A DNA stretch of 64,000 nt from an uncultured Gammaproteobacteria bacterium (GCA_964474445.1 CAYYSJ010000001.1:78530-142529); one strand, 5' to 3'; shown: positions 3,364 through 13,156, numbered from the stretch's first letter. Notes: generated by a model not told the origin, from the sequence alone. Program-made: numbers and translations.

Positions 3364-3446
3364 GCCGCGGTGGTGGAATGGTATACACGAAGGCCTTAAG
3401 AGCCTTTGTCAGCAATGGCATGCGAGTCCGAGTCTCGCCCGCGGTA
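3364..3446 (+). tRNA. tRNA-Leu (anticodon TAA), long variable arm, no encoded CCA
   Basis: Acceptor GCCGCGG/CCGCGGT, D-arm GGTGGAATGGTA, anticodon stem AAGGC/GCCTT with loop CTTAAGA, long extra arm, T-arm GCGAG-TCCGAGT-CTCGC. Confidence 0.85.
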
Positions 3447-3520
3447 CTTTGTCCTTCTAGGTGGACAATATAAAACTAAAAATGAAAAAGTAAAGTTTAA
3501 AATTTTTAGTTTTTGCAGAA

Positions 3521-3594
3521 CGGGGAGTAGCTCAGTTGGCTAGAGCGCGCGGTTTGGGACCGTGAGGTCGGAGGTTCAAGTCCTCTCTCCCCGA
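3521..3594 (+). tRNA. tRNA-Pro (anticodon TGG), no encoded CCA
   Basis: Acceptor CGGGGAG/CTCCCCG, D-arm GCTCAGTTGGCTAGAGC, anticodon loop TTTGGGA, T-arm GGAGG-TTCAAGT-CCTCT. Confidence 0.85.
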
Positions 3595-3606
3595 CAAAAG
3601 AAGCCG

Positions 3607-4179
3607 TTAATTTTTCTTGATTTGCTTCCAGAGAAAAACTCCTAAAAGAATAAGATCAATAAAGCCAACAAGCGAGAAAAGGAATGTAAACACACCAAAT
3701 GCTCCAAGTCCATTCCAACCCATTATAGAACTTGTCCCTCCCCAATTTCCCATCATACCTTCTACACCTCCCTGTCCGTTTGAATAACAACCAGTAGCAT
3801 TTTTAGCAAGACGAATGTGCATTTGCTCCTCACCATTTTCTCCCATCAGTTGTTTCATAGCGTTATTCATTTGTATATGAGCATTAGTATTCCCGCCAAA
3901 ACTCTGATTCATCAGATACTCTCCAATTTTTTCGAAATCATCGTCTCTGAAATTTGTGCAGGAAACTTGTTTATTCTGGAGTTTTGTAAAAAGGTCTTTA
4001 CCTGTTTGAATATCTTGCAAATCTTGCTGTGTTGGGGTAATTGTTGGAGTTCCAGACAATCCTTGCATCATGGGAATTCCAGTAGAATCCATCATTTGTG
4101 CGTTACTTTTCCCAACAACAAGAAATAAGCAGAAAATACCTGCTAGAAGAAAAGTGCTTAGATATTTTTTCACTGACAT
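3607..4179 (-). CDS. Met/Gly-rich secreted protein with C-terminal TM anchor and basic tail; putative Cu-binding surface protein
   Basis: Likely start MSVKKYLSTFLLAG (signal peptide) immediately after copZ stop; Met-rich motifs (MMQG, MNNAMKQLMGENGEEQMH, GMMGNWGG) typical of periplasmic Cu(I) binders; C-terminal hydrophobic helix + KQIKKN. Confidence 0.5.
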   Translation of the reverse strand: MSVKKYLSTFLLAGIFCLFLVVGKSNAQMMDSTGIPMMQGLSGTPTITPTQQDLQDIQTGKDLFTKLQNKQVSCTNFRDDDFEKIGEYLMNQSFGGNTNAHIQMNNAMKQLMGENGEEQMHIRLAKNATGCYSNGQGGVEGMMGNWGGTSSIMGWNGLGAFGVFTFLFSLVGFIDLILLGVFLWKQIKKN

Positions 4180-4180
4180 A

Positions 4181-4402
4181 CTAATTTTTGACTGGCTGAG
4201 CAGTGTACCCAACCTTCTGTATAATAGACACTATCTTTTCTTCAGTCAATTTGTCAGTGTCAAAGGTCACTTCTGCTACTGCTTTTGCATAATGAGTATT
4301 TGATTGTTTTACCCCATCTATTTCTTCCAAAGCGTCATCTACCTCAAGCGTACAAGCCGTACAGTGCATTCCTGATATTTTGAATTTTTGTTTTGTTATC
4401 AT
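4181..4402 (-). CDS. copZ: copper chaperone CopZ (heavy-metal-associated domain)
   Basis: 73 aa, GMHCTACTLEV = GMxCxxC HMA motif. Confidence 0.85.
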   Translation of the reverse strand: MITKQKFKISGMHCTACTLEVDDALEEIDGVKQSNTHYAKAVAEVTFDTDKLTEEKIVSIIQKVGYTAQPVKN

Positions 4403-5433
4403 ATTACAACGTGCATAACTCCTCTATACATTCCCATACTACACATAAAAGGAATATCTTCTACTTGTTGTGGAGCTGTAAAAGCAATGGTAGCTGATGC
4501 TCCAAGAGGAACAACTTTTTGAATACCAAGACTTGGGATAGTAAATGATTGAGTACAACCCTGCCCACCAGTGTTTTTCAAATGGATAGTTATTGGTGAG
4601 CCTGCTTTAATGGTGAAATTATTTGGGTTGTACCCTGTTGCTGCAATGTCTATGCTTGCATCCTGTACAGGTGTACTATATGCATTACCTCCTATTGGAC
4701 CACAGATAGCAAAAACACACCAAAATCCTTTAGCCATATTCTCTATTGTCCATGAACTCCCTGTAAGGGCTACTGCATTATTAATATTAAAAATTGCCAA
4801 TAAAATAATGGCAATCGCAGCCAACTTCATAAAGCCTTGCTGAAACATATCACCAAGTTTTGTTGCAAAATAGCCGAGAACAAAAAATACAGGTGATGTC
4901 CCTAATACAAAAGCAAAGAGAATTGCTGCTCCAAGAAGAGGTTTGCCTGATGCAATGGCAAGTGCCATCATTGCTTGGGTTGTTCCACAAGGAATAAAGA
5001 CAGTGAATGCACCAAGAAGTGCTGGAGCGAACATAGTCTGGCTTTTGGATTGTTTTCTTATCAATCGAGTCAAAAAATGGGGAGGTTGAATAATAAAGTA
5101 GCGAAAGATGGGGTGAACATCAAGAATATTAAAAGCTGTACCAATCATAAATACTGCAACAGCAACTTGCAAAATAATTCGAGTACTCAGAGACAGTTGA
5201 AAGAAAGAGCCAAGTCCACCAAGCAGAAAGCCAAGAAGTGTATAGGCGGTAAGTTTCGTTACAAGGAATGCAAGAATAGGAAATGCATTCCCACCTTTAG
5301 TTTTTTCCTGGAGACGTTCCTCTTCTGCTTGAGCAAGAGTAGCTGCTAAAAGTCCTCCCTGTACTGCCATACACGTTAATCCTCCTGCTAATAACCCTGT
5401 GAGAAAAATGGCAAGTAAGTTAATGTTTCCCAT
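4399..5433 (-). CDS. membrane protein: DsbD_2-like Cys-containing TM domain fused to C-terminal cupredoxin-like domain
   Basis: 6-8 predicted TM helices with conserved Cys (LTCMAVQGG, IPCGTTQAMM); C-terminal beta-rich domain ending FMCSMGMYRGVMHVVI (Cys/Met/His cluster typical of cupredoxin_1-like Cu sites). Confidence 0.6.
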   Translation of the reverse strand: MGNINLLAIFLTGLLAGGLTCMAVQGGLLAATLAQAEEERLQEKTKGGNAFPILAFLVTKLTAYTLLGFLLGGLGSFFQLSLSTRIILQVAVAVFMIGTAFNILDVHPIFRYFIIQPPHFLTRLIRKQSKSQTMFAPALLGAFTVFIPCGTTQAMMALAIASGKPLLGAAILFAFVLGTSPVFFVLGYFATKLGDMFQQGFMKLAAIAIILLAIFNINNAVALTGSSWTIENMAKGFWCVFAICGPIGGNAYSTPVQDASIDIAATGYNPNNFTIKAGSPITIHLKNTGGQGCTQSFTIPSLGIQKVVPLGASATIAFTAPQQVEDIPFMCSMGMYRGVMHVVI

Positions 5434-5436
5434 AAT

Positions 5437-6600
5437 TTATACTTTACAACAATCCTCCATATCTTCTGGATCCATTTCCATCATTTTAAGCATTGCTGGT
5501 CCACCTGTTCGAAGAAATCGTATTGTTAAGATAACAGCTAAAATTGAGAAAATAATATTAAGCACACTTGTATAATTCCAAGAAATACCAGAGTTTATCA
5601 TGACAACATTTCTATTTGTTGGAATAATATGAAGATGAGAAAAAATAAATTCAATGATGTATCCTGCTGCTGCCATAGTGATATAAAAACTAACTAAGAT
5701 ATATGCCATCATCTTAAAACTATAGTATTTTCTGTAAATATTAAGAATTGGCAAGACAATAAGGTCTGCAAATATAAAGCTCACAACTCCTCCAAAACTA
5801 ATACCACCCTTCCATAACACTGCTGCAAGTGGGACGTTCCCAACAGAACATACAAAAGAAAGCATAGCTACAAGAGGTCCAACAAGTGGTCCTTCTATGT
5901 ATGCGAGTGTTGGATTATTCGTAAAGAAAAATGCTTGCCAAAAAGGCTCTGGTACAAATACGGCAAGTACTCCTGCAATACCAAAGCCAATCAGAATATC
6001 AATCCAGATGGAGGCAATATCCATAATGAAATAATGACTTATTGTGGTAAATCCTTTTTTACTAACAAGTCTTGACCAAAGACTACCTTCTGTCAGGCTC
6101 ATATTCATATCAGCATGTCCCTCCATTTTGCCAATCAAGCCTTTTTCTGCTTGTCGTCTTGCTTCCTTGACAAGTTTTCTTGAGAGAGTAAAGCGGAAAA
6201 TAAGAGCAAGAAGAATAACCATAATAATTCCCCCAAGAAATTCTGCACTAACAAATTGCCAACCCATAAATACCCACAGAATAACTCCTAATTCTATGAC
6301 TAAATTTGTAGAGGACAATTCAAAAACCATTGCATTTGTAAAGCTTGCACCTTTGCGAAAAATAGAACGAGCTAGGGCAATAGCAGCATAAGAACAAGAA
6401 CTTGAGGCAATTCCAAAAAGAGTTGCTAGGGTAACACTTCTAGGTGAATCGTCCCCAAGTGTTTCTGCCATTTTTGCATGAGAAACAACTGCCTGGACGA
6501 TACCAGAAAGAGCAAAGCCTAATATAAGAGGCCATAAAACGTCCCACAACATATAAAAGGACATAAGAAGTGATGTAAGAATGTTATGGAATAAATTCAT
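5437..6600 (-). CDS. permease, COG0701/ArsP-like family with C-terminal Cys-Cys
   Basis: 387 aa polytopic membrane protein, two-repeat permease architecture, C-terminal MEDCCKV metal-binding-like tail; operonic with csoR/copZ. Confidence 0.7.
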   Translation of the reverse strand: MNLFHNILTSLLMSFYMLWDVLWPLILGFALSGIVQAVVSHAKMAETLGDDSPRSVTLATLFGIASSSCSYAAIALARSIFRKGASFTNAMVFELSSTNLVIELGVILWVFMGWQFVSAEFLGGIIMVILLALIFRFTLSRKLVKEARRQAEKGLIGKMEGHADMNMSLTEGSLWSRLVSKKGFTTISHYFIMDIASIWIDILIGFGIAGVLAVFVPEPFWQAFFFTNNPTLAYIEGPLVGPLVAMLSFVCSVGNVPLAAVLWKGGISFGGVVSFIFADLIVLPILNIYRKYYSFKMMAYILVSFYITMAAAGYIIEFIFSHLHIIPTNRNVVMINSGISWNYTSVLNIIFSILAVILTIRFLRTGGPAMLKMMEMDPEDMEDCCKV

Positions 6601-6869
6601 TTATTTTTTTTGAATACAGTCATGATTTCTTCAATTGCTTCGTCGGTTTTACCTTTTTTCATCTTCTCAGAAGCACAAGTTCGTAAATGATGTTCAAGAA
6701 GTACATTGGCTGTTTCTTCAAGTCCACTATCTACAGCATTTAATTGTTGCAAGACATCTATGCAGTAAGTGTCGTTTTCAACCATCTTAATAACTTTCTC
6801 TAAATGTCCTTTAGCTATTTTAAGACGGTGTAGTATTCGTTCTTGTGTATCTTTTGGTCTATATGCCAT
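6597..6869 (-). CDS. csoR: CsoR/RcnR-family metal-sensing transcriptional repressor
   Basis: 90 aa, DUF156 fold; ligand residues C(YCIDV)...H(EHH)...C(RTCA) = CsoR W-X-Y-Z Cys-His-Cys pattern. Confidence 0.85.
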   Translation of the reverse strand: MAYRPKDTQERILHRLKIAKGHLEKVIKMVENDTYCIDVLQQLNAVDSGLEETANVLLEHHLRTCASEKMKKGKTDEAIEEIMTVFKKNK

Positions 6870-6893
6870 ATTTTAATCCTGAGTTTATCGAAG

Positions 6894-6916
6894 AATATCC
6901 TCCCCTAGAGGATATT
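6894..6916. promoter_or_regulatory. perfect 9-5-9 inverted repeat AATATCCTC-CCCTA-GAGGATATT upstream of csoR; candidate CsoR operator
   Basis: Palindrome 25-47 nt upstream of csoR ATG with C/G-tract centre as in known CsoR operators. Confidence 0.35.
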
Positions 6917-7108
6917 ATTAAATAATCAATATGGTCGTGTCAATACTTAATAAATGTAATCAGTGGCTAAAGTGTACGATGAATCTTTTAATTGATGTAT
7001 TTGCTCATCAAATTTAACTGGATTCCAATGTTGGAGGATGAATGCAACTAGCGGTTCAATATCTATCGCTTGTTCGCGATAAACTAAAGGCAGTTACTAA
7101 CCTATCTA

Positions 7109-9741: not shown

Positions 9742-11475
9742 TCACTGCGCTCCAAATGTGAAAGCAAATACTTGTATGCCAGGTGTTTGGAATTCTAAAC
9801 GAAGAATATGTTCTGATACTTTCTCTTTTAGATCAATAAGGTTATATAGTCTATCAGTATCAACAGTTACTATTCCATTTTTGACATCATTTCCTGCATT
9901 TGCATCAGAAATATCTTTTCCATCGAGTAAGACTTTCACTGTCCCTGGCTGGTTCCCTGGTGGACGAAGAACTAAAAATACTTTTCCTGCAAAGAAATGA
10001 TAGACAAGGACTGAATTGTTTCCTGAAATAGCATTTTCATCCTGAATATTCCATGTCCCTCCAAAGCTAAATGAATGAAGTGTAGGATTTCCTAGTTCAA
10101 AGGTTTTACTGACAACCCCAGTGCTCCCTGTTGGATAGTAAAATTCCATTCGTTTTGCACCCACATATGTTTCTGGAGAAAGTCTGGTTGTTGGGGTAGT
10201 GTCTGGCATAGTATCAATGGATGTATTTACCTGTTTCCCTGCTTCTTTGAGTAATGCTTGAATAGCCATTTCTGTTTGGTCATATTCTCCTTCTCCAAAA
10301 TGAGTCCGTCTGATATTTCCTTGCGCATCAATAAGATATTCTGCAGGCCAATATTGATTAGAATAATTATTCCATGTTGCATAATTGTTATCCTGTGCAA
10401 CAGGATAGTGAATATTGTACATCTGTATTGCATTCAGCACATTCTGCGTTTCGTGTTCAAATGCAAATTCTGGTGTATGAACACCAATGACGATAAACCC
10501 TTTATCCTTGTATTTCTCATACCATGACGTGACATGAGGGAGTGTCCTAATACAGTTAATACAGGTATAGGTCCAGAAATCTACTAATACGACTTTTCCT
10601 TTGAGGTCGGAAATACTGAGTTGTTTATCTATATTTAACCATTTGGTAATGCCAACAAAATCAGGAGCTGGAAAATTTTGGTTAAAAAGTCCAGAACTAT
10701 CTGGAGTAGTTGTTTTTGGCATGTTTCCTTTTAACACATCAAGTTGTTTTTTCACTTCAGGGTTAGATTCAAATGCATTAAAGGAATTTGTAAATTGTGG
10801 AAACGTATTGAGAAGTTGTGCTTGCAGATAGGTATCATAATGTGTGTAGATCGCAAGAGCGGTTAAAAGCATCACAATCCCAAAAACCTGTTGGATTTTA
10901 CCCAGCTGGGAAGAAAGAAACCGGGTCTTTGAGAAAAGAACCTGTCCTACAAAAGCAAATAGAAATAACGGAATTCCAACACCTAAAATATATGCTCCTG
11001 TAATCGCAATAAGAGAAAGTGTTACTTGTCCTGTCGCAGCAAGTGTTGCAATAGCAGCAAGAATTGGTCCTGCACAAGGGCTCCATACAATTCCCAAAGA
11101 AAGTCCAGTAATAAAGCCAGCAGTGAAGTCATTGCTTGTTGTTCGTACCCCAAATAGTCCGGACAATCGGCTAATGAGTGCTTCTGTCACCTGGGAAAAC
11201 TGGGGAATAATCAAAGAAATTCCGAGCAAACCAATGACTACAACCGCAACCAGTCTTAAGATATTTGGATCCAAGTGAAATATTTTTACGATGCTTGAAA
11301 TAGCAAGGGTAAAAACGCCAAAGCTCAACATAATGCCAAGTGTAATCCCAAGAGGCCTTTGATGACTTTTTCCACTGACGCTGCTTGAAAAAATAATAGG
11401 AAGAATTGGCCAGATGCACGGCGCAAGTATCGTAACAAGACCTGATAAAAATGCAAAAAAAATCAAAAGTATCAT
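9742..11475 (-). CDS. DipZ-like thiol:disulfide interchange protein (CcdA membrane domain + thioredoxin-like domain + C-terminal beta domain)
   Basis: N-terminal CcdA/DsbD TM core (LAPCIWPILP, WSPCAGPILAAI), periplasmic redoxin with WTYTCINC (CxxC), extra C-terminal ~150 aa as in mycobacterial DipZ. Confidence 0.8.
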   Translation of the reverse strand: MILLIFFAFLSGLVTILAPCIWPILPIIFSSSVSGKSHQRPLGITLGIMLSFGVFTLAISSIVKIFHLDPNILRLVAVVVIGLLGISLIIPQFSQVTEALISRLSGLFGVRTTSNDFTAGFITGLSLGIVWSPCAGPILAAIATLAATGQVTLSLIAITGAYILGVGIPLFLFAFVGQVLFSKTRFLSSQLGKIQQVFGIVMLLTALAIYTHYDTYLQAQLLNTFPQFTNSFNAFESNPEVKKQLDVLKGNMPKTTTPDSSGLFNQNFPAPDFVGITKWLNIDKQLSISDLKGKVVLVDFWTYTCINCIRTLPHVTSWYEKYKDKGFIVIGVHTPEFAFEHETQNVLNAIQMYNIHYPVAQDNNYATWNNYSNQYWPAEYLIDAQGNIRRTHFGEGEYDQTEMAIQALLKEAGKQVNTSIDTMPDTTPTTRLSPETYVGAKRMEFYYPTGSTGVVSKTFELGNPTLHSFSFGGTWNIQDENAISGNNSVLVYHFFAGKVFLVLRPPGNQPGTVKVLLDGKDISDANAGNDVKNGIVTVDTDRLYNLIDLKEKVSEHILRLEFQTPGIQVFAFTFGAQ

Positions 11476-12986: not shown

Positions 12987-13061
12987 GCGGGTTTAGCTCA
13001 GTGGTAGAGCATCTGCTTTCCAAGCAGAGTGTCGTGGGTTCGAGTCCCATAACCCGCTCCC
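12987..13061 (+). tRNA. tRNA-Gly (anticodon TCC), CCA encoded
   Basis: Acceptor GCGGGTT/AACCCGC, anticodon stem TCTGC/GCAGA loop TTTCCAA, T-arm GGGTTCGAGTCCC, 3' TCCA. Confidence 0.9.
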
Positions 13062-13080
13062 AACGTATATTAAGCTACAC

Positions 13081-13156
13081 GCTCCCATAGCTCAGTGGAT
13101 AGAGCATATCGGTTCTAACGATGTGGCCGGGGGTTCGAATCCCTCTGGGAGCGCCA
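13081..13156 (+). tRNA. tRNA-Arg (anticodon TCT), CCA encoded
   Basis: Acceptor GCTCCCA/TGGGAGC, D-arm GCTCAGTGGATAGAGC, anticodon loop GTTCTAA, T-arm GGGGGTTCGAATCCCTC, 3' GCCA. Confidence 0.85.

Follow-up and report, generated by a model that had tools for sequence, protein, structure and literature searches.

How does a bacterium dispose of cytoplasmic Cu(I) when its copper operon, placed under the control of CsoR, encodes no copper-transporting ATPase? The question is raised by five genes on the minus strand, at positions 3607-6916, of a 64,000-nucleotide (nt) stretch of DNA from an uncultured Gammaproteobacteria bacterium (GCA_964474445.1, CAYYSJ010000001.1:78530-142529), which as a whole we call the window. 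In our reading its genome probably belongs to Levybacteria/Microgenomates (Patescibacteria). In order, the genes encode the repressor CsoR, a permease of the ArsP_1 superfamily, a fusion of a DsbD_2 membrane domain to a cupredoxin domain, the chaperone CopZ and a Met-rich anchored protein. Taken together, our comparisons suggest, with a probability of about 0.6, that this is a CsoR-repressed operon for the detoxification of Cu(I), and probably also Ag(I), in which a secondary permease stands in the place of CopA. Efflux of cytoplasmic copper has been assigned to P1B ATPases in almost every bacterium studied, and to find a permease exchanged for cupA-copA within a conserved cassette under CsoR argues strongly, by comparison, for a secondary exporter of Cu(I).

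Regulator, gene neighbourhood and the CopA position

An initial annotation of the window had described a tightly packed five-gene operon, and we find all five open reading frames on the minus strand at the coordinates it gave, with junctions, from csoR to the Met-rich gene, of -4, +3, -4 and +1 nt (negative values being overlaps, positive ones gaps). Its four domain calls (DUF156, a COG0701 permease, DsbD_2 with Cupredoxin_1, and HMA) were likewise upheld by a Pfam search, the permease as ArsP_1. CsoR scores 86 bits against PF02583 (cut-off 22.8), and its residues 11-86 align without gaps with M. tuberculosis CsoR (PDB ID 2HH7, E 1e-17), with Tyr35, Cys36, His61, Cys65 and Glu81 all identical. 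The C36/H61/C65 ligands with second-shell Y35 and E81 make up the Cu(I)-sensing fingerprint, and not the pattern of RcnR, FrmR or CstR. Upstream of csoR, the top promoter-like site between 3300 and 7300 is TTGACA-18-AATAAT, which matches the consensus at 11 of 12 positions and whose function is predicted from the consensus match alone. The perfect palindrome reported earlier is indeed present, ends 24 nt before the csoR ATG and overlaps the -10 hexamer. We rejected its rarity as an argument, since the window holds 7 perfect palindromes with 9-nt arms against 2.6 expected in random sequence of the same composition, which is not significant. It is meaningful because of its position over the -10, its conserved box and the fact that this box has no other exact match: TATCCyC-N3-7-GrGGATA precedes csoR in 32 of the 49 orthologous regions compared and is matched exactly a single time in the window (0.32 expected). 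The earlier claim of CsoR control therefore stands on two features, a Cu(I) fingerprint that matches 2HH7 and a conserved, GC-cored inverted-repeat operator at the regulator's own promoter, and we predict that the operon is repressed by CsoR and responsive to Cu(I). By regulator and chaperone it is, as far as sequence can tell, a CsoR cop operon without the canonical P1B ATPase.

The reported absence of CopA also held, both in the window and in the adjoining 3.6 kb on its left. A six-frame translation of the 64 kb contains no DKTGT motif, and the largest open reading frames (a DUF2079 membrane protein, a Kup transporter, BipA, MFS transporters and others) include no ATPases; a Logan contig (L091) that overlaps the left end and reaches 3.6 kb beyond it has neither a P-type ATPase nor a DKTGT motif in that extension. 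To see what related operons carry we turned to the fusion, which has more than 6,000 detectable homologues, the named ones being mostly 'sulfite exporter TauE/SafE family protein' and mostly from Patescibacteria. We compared 80 related fusion loci from one-genome-per-species contigs, nearly all of them assigned to Levy-, Gottesman-, Roizman- or Woesebacteria or to unclassified Patescibacteria, with some titles that look like placeholders. Directly after the fusion gene stands copZ in 78 of the 78 loci with downstream sequence, even where no other exporter is nearby. Directly upstream, on the same strand, 45 of the 80 loci encode CopA (730-840 amino acids, with DKTGT, CPC and an N-terminal HMA domain), usually itself preceded by csoR. 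Moreover, in 16 loci csoR and copA are joined by the gene of a 119-amino-acid CupA-like protein that has one N-terminal helix, is 39-49% identical to the soluble domain of CupA and keeps all of its ligands. The locus L087 shows the full form, with csoR, a Met-rich protein, a 175-amino-acid unknown, a CupA-like protein, CopA, the fusion and CopZ. The 119-amino-acid proteins (L003 3017-3376, L026 2175-2534, L012 5382-5741 and 13 other loci) have Lys/Arg after the N-terminal helix and the C...CGMxM ligands intact, and would appear to be genuine orthologues of CupA from beyond the streptococci, with partner CopAs of the HMA type; no stand-alone CupA orthologue is encoded in the window.

An ArsP_1 permease occupies the CopA position only in the window, in L002, L017 and L043 (here with a DsbA-like gene intercalated) and on the 201-kb contig of P0133, and no ATPase lies within the flanks at hand of these permease-type loci. 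Comparison of the fusion and permease searches suggests three further permease-type cases. The window operon thus appears to be a minority variant of the Patescibacteria cassette csoR-(Met-rich protein)-(cupA)-copA-fusion-copZ, in which the permease takes the place of cupA-copA. The synteny csoR-permease-fusion-copZ, which the initial annotation had singled out for comparison, is conserved as regards the fusion-copZ pair, but the permease belongs to a minority of loci. Its suggestion of an ATPase-independent route fared similarly: such a route is plausible, and is strengthened by the permease's standing in the slot that CopA holds in most relatives, but the implied claim that the gene set is ATPase-free as such is not supported, given the CopA-bearing loci. 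Between the window and L002 protein identity falls from 98% for CsoR and 90% for the permease to 73% for the fusion and 69% for CopZ, and nucleotide homology (window 4260-6871, L002 6563-9189) runs from the csoR start codon to inside copZ. This step in identity, combined with the bounds of homology, marks the cassette as modular, with different flanks in the two genomes, and points to modular recombination of csoR-permease against fusion-copZ.

The permease was assessed over 37 homologues. Each half contains a single invariant Cys, C69 in SSSCS and C251 in SFVCSVGNVP, and a loop MEGHAxMxM (159-167) and the motif MLKMM (370-374) are invariant as well, while the C-terminal tail is variable, ending in DCCKV in Patescibacteria and being His/Met-rich in Ktedonobacteria. 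Met, His and Cys are typical Cu(I)/Ag(I) ligands. By a positive-inside reading we infer that the Met/His loop and the tail are both cytoplasmic, a placement that suits capture of cytoplasmic Cu(I). With permeases from cultured Ktedonobacteria (Ktedonobacter, Dictyobacter) the protein shares about 70% identity, and in Ktedonobacter sp. SOSP1-52 the gene of a 71%-identical permease lies between those of a CopA-type ATPase and two csoR-family genes, a neighbourhood that provides what appears to be an independent copper link. Against the NCBIfam equivalog models it reaches 65 bits for SO_0444 (cut-off 300) and 53 bits for SaoE (cut-off 325). The Cys-Ser-Cys motif that characterises ArsP, SO_0444 and SaoE (bioRxiv 10.1101/2022.07.06.499078) is absent, with SSSCS instead, and no ars genes are found near the permease, whose neighbours are csoR, the DsbD_2 fusion gene, copZ, tRNA genes, a methyltransferase gene and an FMN reductase gene. 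On these scores, this motif and this context we rejected orthology to ArsP, SO_0444 or SaoE, and with it the possibility, raised in the initial annotation, of an ArsP orthologue in an arsenic setting. We place the permease within the ArsP_1 superfamily but, on present models, outside all three named families, and propose it as a secondary Cu(I) exporter. A non-ATPase solution has a precedent in SO_0444, for which Cu and Zn tolerance was shown by fitness assays and complementation (PMC3219624; see also PMC10092412).

The fusion, the chaperone and the Met-rich protein

Conservation and topology of the fusion were read from an alignment of 43 homologues. Its DsbD_2 part has six hydrophobic helices with an invariant Cys in helix 1 (C21) and another in helix 4 (C149, within IPCGTTQ), and the linker before the cupredoxin domain contains the invariant pair C239 and C244. 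Lys+Arg averages are 12.5 for loops 1, 3 and 5 and 1.5 for the N-terminus, loops 2 and 4 and the linker after helix 6, and the stretch 232-250 is too weakly hydrophobic for a membrane span. The predicted topology is N-out/C-out, which is also the accepted orientation of CcdA and DsbD, and from this prediction it follows that the cupredoxin domain should face outward.

The best solved-structure sequence match of the fusion is S. pneumoniae CupA (PDB IDs 2MRY and 4F2E, E 5.7e-5), followed by a B. anthracis Cupredoxin_1 protein and by the cupredoxin metal-binding domain of pneumococcal CopA. Cys293 aligns with CupA Cys74, and Cys331-Ser-Met333-Gly-Met335 with CupA Cys111-x-Met113-x-Met115; C293, C331, M333 and M335 are invariant in the alignment, and His341 of the window protein falls outside the conserved set, the family consensus there being GVINV. 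An AlphaFold2 model has a mean pLDDT (predicted local distance difference test) of 68.5, with 70-88 in the cupredoxin domain, and its top Foldseek match is again 4F2E (E 3e-7, target TM-score 0.82). The cupredoxin call of the initial annotation is thus borne out by the PF13473 match and by CupA as the best fold match, but the type-1-like or redox copper site it had envisaged is not: the ligand set is of the CupA type, Cys with Cys-x-Met-x-Met. A type-1 (blue) site was rejected because it needs His, Cys, His and Met, and the fusion has Cys at the N-terminal ligand position and C-x-M-x-M in the C-terminal loop. By alignment and model, residues 257-344 form a CupA-type domain predicted to bind Cu(I). 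CupA itself binds a binuclear Cu(I) cluster with the same Cys...Cys-x-Met-x-Met ligands (PMC7558416, section 4.2).

In the related loci, the genes found upstream of the fusion other than copA and the permease gene encode DsbA-like CPFC proteins (at least 8 loci), CDF and RND transporters, type-1-like cupredoxins and other Met-rich proteins. The DsbA-like proteins are membrane-anchored and encoded directly upstream of the fusion in L007, L008, L010, L019, L021, L033, L043 and L046, an arrangement that recalls ScsB/ScsC and hints at a thiol-redox connection. In L024 (7570-7998) and L060 (7574-7993) the upstream gene encodes a small cupredoxin with the type-1-like motif H...YYCS..H....GM, so that both CupA-type and blue-copper-type cupredoxins occur in these cassettes.

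CopZ is a predicted cytoplasmic Cu(I) chaperone; the CopZ models of NCBIfam match it at 48-64 bits, below their exception-model cut-offs, and it has the HMA fold with GMxCxxC. For the last gene of the operon a TTG start at 4212 was rejected in favour of the ATG at 4179, given the N-termini of homologues and an independent gene call in L001. From this ATG the protein comprises a signal peptide ending in AQ, a Met-rich N-terminus, a three-helix bundle, a Gly/Met-rich linker and a C-terminal membrane helix. The bundle (residues 45-132) is modelled by AlphaFold2 with pLDDT above 90 and has, in the family alignment, invariant C74, H101, H121 and C131 with conserved Met; no fold match to it was found in the PDB. 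A word-indexed search returned 95 relatives, of which the few with a source name are from Patescibacteria, and a profile search of 1.84 billion cluster representatives gave 1,330 matches with E <= 0.001, of which 668 reached E <= 1e-10; Pfam has no model for this family, which numbers at least 1,330 clusters at 50% identity. Longer relatives add a SHOCT domain after the C-terminal helix. Homologues are encoded immediately behind csoR (L014, L087) or copZ (L019), behind the gene of an HMBD-type P1B ATPase (L083), two genes away from that of an ArsP_1 permease (L085) and near those of a YHS-ATPase and a Zip transporter (L088/L089). Two loci of this family adjoin conjugation-type genes (TraG-like, PrgI, a type IV secretion system pilin), which suggests carriage on mobile elements. 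In two unrelated loci the Met-rich gene is directly followed by that of an unannotated protein of about 175 amino acids (L085 6548-7069, L087 5561-6088), which precedes the ArsP_1 permease in L085 and cupA-copA in L087. The window lacks this protein, perhaps a conserved partner.

From these parts the following mechanism can be proposed. Binding of Cu(I) at C36/H61/C65 would free CsoR from the palindrome over the -10 and derepress the operon. CopZ, by its family membership, would buffer cytoplasmic Cu(I) and feed the membrane proteins. With its Met/His loop and its Cys-Cys tail, both predicted to be cytoplasmic, the permease would take up Cu(I) and export it through a site made of C69 and C251, driven by the proton-motive force or antiport and not by ATP. 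The fusion might receive Cu(I) from CopZ at C21/C149 and pass it by way of C239/C244 to the outward CupA-type binuclear site, and the Met-rich protein could hold expelled Cu(I) at the cell surface and limit its re-entry. In its boldest form, which we advance tentatively and think rather unlikely, the five genes would be a complete ATP-independent relay for Cu(I), with the Cys pair of DsbD_2 as a copper path and not an electron path and with CopA dispensable. In that form, set in the envelope of an energy-poor, cell-wall-bounded bacterium, CopZ would hand Cu(I) to the permease and the fusion, from where it would reach the CupA-type site and then the Met-rich family.

Features of the operon and its promoter region, in window coordinates
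Feature	Position	Strand	Basis
csoR, predicted Cu(I)-sensing repressor, 90 amino acids	6597-6869	-	PF02583 Trns_repr_metal, E 2e-24
ArsP_1-superfamily permease, 387 amino acids	5437-6600	-	PF03773, E 6e-69
DsbD_2::cupredoxin fusion, 344 amino acids	4399-5433	-	PF13386, E 3e-31; PF13473 Cupredoxin_1, E 5e-12
copZ, predicted HMA-type Cu(I) chaperone, 73 amino acids	4181-4402	-	PF00403, E 1e-14; motif GMHCTAC
Met-rich anchored protein, 190 amino acids from ATG	3607-4179	-	no Pfam or NCBIfam match
Sigma-70-like promoter, -35 TTGACA (6943-6938), 18-nt spacer, -10 AATAAT (6919-6914)	6914-6943	-	consensus match
Proposed CsoR operator, palindrome AATATCCTC-CCCTA-GAGGATATT	6894-6916	strand-neutral	perfect 9-5-9

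The 3' end of the operon is faced by two converging tRNA genes (Leu and Pro, at 3364-3447 and 3521-3595), and together with a Gly/Arg pair within 12987-13156 these bracket a segment of about 9.4 kb that includes the operon. Neither an integrase nor att-like repeats of the tRNA ends on its flanks were found, and recent horizontal transfer was rejected on composition, the operon's GC content and its GC content at third codon positions being within or near the range of the window. On the same strand, 2.9 kb upstream of csoR, a gene at 9742-11475 (minus strand) encodes a CcdA-ResA-like fusion of 577 amino acids that joins DsbD_TM, a thioredoxin-fold domain of the Redoxin/AhpC-TSA type and Thioredoxin_10. 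Inside this gene, at 10389-10407, lies a weak site resembling the CsoR box with 2 mismatches, probably by chance.

Competing explanations

Several observations weigh against the reading of a copper detoxification operon with a permease in CopA's place. Since the membrane potential is negative inside, export of Cu(I) by the permease would have to be by antiport, which the model presumes. The Dictyobacter orthologue of the permease has no copper neighbours. Because the permease scores so low against the SO_0444 and SaoE models and has no CSC motif, its substrate is read from context and motifs only. The model of the fusion is only moderately confident in its membrane part, at the mean pLDDT given above, and the DsbA-like CPFC genes upstream of the fusion favour a redox role for DsbD_2. 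Finally, one metagenome-assembled genome (MAG), JBBSGT01, has both a CopA-type (L003) and a permease-type (L043) cassette, so that the permease may supplement CopA and not substitute for it, and the organism need not be independent of ATPases.

The redox role can be put as an explanation of its own, in which the DsbD_2 part of the fusion is an electron conduit like CcdA or ScsB that carries reducing equivalents out of the cytoplasm through C21/C149 and C239/C244 and keeps C293/C331 reduced for Cu(I) arriving from the real exporter, be it CopA or the permease; as a variant, the outer domain could, under copper stress, reduce Cu(II) at the surface or repair disulfides. We regard it as somewhat unlikely. 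In its favour, the protein belongs to the DsbD clan, has its invariant Cys in transmembrane helices 1 and 4, the latter in a Pro-Cys motif as in CcdA and DsbD, and its three invariant Cys pairs in series resemble the beta-gamma-alpha cascade of DsbD. Its Cys ligands are predicted on the oxidising outside, and DsbA-like proteins are encoded directly upstream in at least 8 loci. A precedent is ScsB/ScsC, a copper-tolerance pair of enterobacteria. Moreover, the Cys residues of CupA can reduce Cu(II) in vitro (PMC7558416, PMC5646241). On the other side, the fusion scores 22.2 bits against DsbD_TM (PF02683), below the cut-off of 27.1, and 109 bits against DsbD_2 (PF13386); the window has a separate, canonical DsbD_TM-thioredoxin fusion in the gene upstream of csoR; and the operon itself includes no thioredoxin-fold partner. 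The unbroken adjacency to copZ, even without another exporter, is more easily explained if CopZ is the Cu(I) donor, and relatives in Firmicutes fuse HMA straight to DsbD_2 (PMC4938975). We weight a relay of Cu(I) through the fusion somewhat above conduction of electrons, on what the sequences offer.

It is also conceivable, but we consider it doubtful, that the operon is an accessory copper buffer, with bulk export by a CopA encoded elsewhere and a permease that moves a Cu-thiolate, a low-molecular-weight thiol, or Zn, Cd or Ag. The coexistence of both cassettes in one MAG fits this explanation, as does the isolated Dictyobacter orthologue, and of the 420,821-bp contig the 64-kb window and 3.6 kb beside it were inspected for copA; copA has been reported as common in Patescibacteria MAGs (PMC8672522), and relatives of the SO_0444 type respond to Zn and Cd as well as to Cu (PMC3219624, PMC10092412). 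Against it, the permease gene is translationally coupled to csoR by the 4-nt overlap, exactly in the slot of copA; csoR and the permease travel as a module, as their identity to L002, higher than that of fusion and CopZ, suggests; the permease's motifs are made of typical Cu(I)/Ag(I) ligands; and the C-H-C fingerprint of the sensor is specific for Cu(I). Highly improbable, in our judgement, is a system with another purpose than copper, either a CstR-like persulfide or sulfite system or an organoarsenical efflux of the ArsP type. The name 'sulfite exporter' borne by homologues of the fusion and the match of the permease to Pfam ArsP_1 would agree with it, and sulfur modules contain CsoR-family regulators beside TauE (PMC6305408). 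However, domains of the HMA and CupA types bind Cu(I), the neighbourhood is free of ars, rhodanese and persulfide dioxygenase genes, the CSC motif of ArsP, SO_0444 and SaoE is missing (bioRxiv 10.1101/2022.07.06.499078), and the same operon in relatives carries a CPC-type CopA. His61 of the window CsoR aligns with that of 2HH7, and CstR is not known to have an equivalent of this His; on this fingerprint and the Cu(I) domains the CstR/TauE sulfur system was rejected.

Meaning and comparison with known systems

Literature searches found no description of a DsbD_2::cupredoxin fusion, of the exchange of a permease for CopA or of the Met-rich family, and those on a copper link of DsbD_2, cupredoxin and TauE and on copper resistance in Patescibacteria did not turn up the cassette. 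Should the favoured reading of a CsoR-repressed operon with a secondary exporter be correct, the label 'sulfite exporter TauE/SafE', which more than 6,000 genes bear at present, would give way to one of copper handling, and the Met-rich family would gain a candidate role as a surface copper binder. CupA has been reviewed as confined to a few streptococci (PMC7558416); its range would be widened by the stand-alone orthologues in Patescibacteria and by an outward domain fused to a membrane protein of the DsbD clan. If the full relay were true, a DsbD-clan protein would have been converted from a thiol-disulfide carrier to a metal-thiolate carrier, and CopA would be dispensable for copper tolerance in these genomes. 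Patescibacteria have small genomes and limited energy metabolism, and a pump-free copper defence would bear on their physiology.

Similar to the CsoR operons copZA and csoR-copA-copZ of M. tuberculosis, B. subtilis, L. monocytogenes and S. lividans, the window operon has a C-H-C CsoR, a GC-cored palindromic operator and CopZ. Unlike them, it has an ArsP_1 permease, a DsbD_2::cupredoxin fusion and a Met-rich protein, and where the canonical copZA operon carries a P1B ATPase with DKTGT and CPC it has none. The permease shares with SO_0444, SaoE and ArsP the ArsP_1 Pfam family, a metal-regulated operon and a membrane-embedded Cys in both halves, but differs in its SSSCS motif, its own MEGHAxMxM loop and its CC or His/Met tails, and is regulated by CsoR where those families have regulators of the MerR or ArsR type. 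CusF, PcoE and CopM are Met-rich periplasmic copper binders, and the window protein is like them predicted to be secreted, Met/His-rich and encoded with copper exporters; it differs in having no sequence or fold match to any solved structure and in its three-helix bundle, two invariant Cys and C-terminal membrane anchor.

The fusion has several relatives to which it can be compared. With CupA (PDB IDs 4F2E, 2MRY and 4F2F) it shares the cupredoxin fold and the Cys...Cys-x-Met-x-Met ligand set for binuclear Cu(I), but identity is about 26% and the domain lies C-terminal to a six-helix DsbD_2 part, with a predicted outward orientation. CupA, in contrast, has a single N-terminal helix and acts on the cytoplasmic side of the membrane. 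CupA is regulated by CopY and the window operon by CsoR; moreover, the partner of CupA is a CopA with a cupredoxin metal-binding domain, while the window has no CopA and those of relatives have a domain of the HMA type at the N-terminus. The cupredoxin domain of the fusion thus resembles CupA in its predicted ligands and is not CupA by architecture or predicted location. With DsbD, CcdA and ScsB the fusion shares the clan, one Cys each in transmembrane helices 1 and 4, six helices in a predicted N-out/C-out arrangement and an outward Cys-containing domain, but it matches DsbD_2 and not DsbD_TM, has no thioredoxin-fold domain and carries a cupredoxin as its outer domain. A further parallel is offered by the CsoR-regulated HMA+DsbD_2 membrane proteins (COG2836) inferred in a meta-regulon of gut Firmicutes (PMC4938975), in which a DsbD_2 membrane domain is likewise combined with a soft-metal-binding domain under a CsoR box. 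In contrast to these, the metal domain of the fusion is a C-terminal, CupA-type cupredoxin predicted outside, with HMA encoded as a separate gene, and both types are known from sequence.

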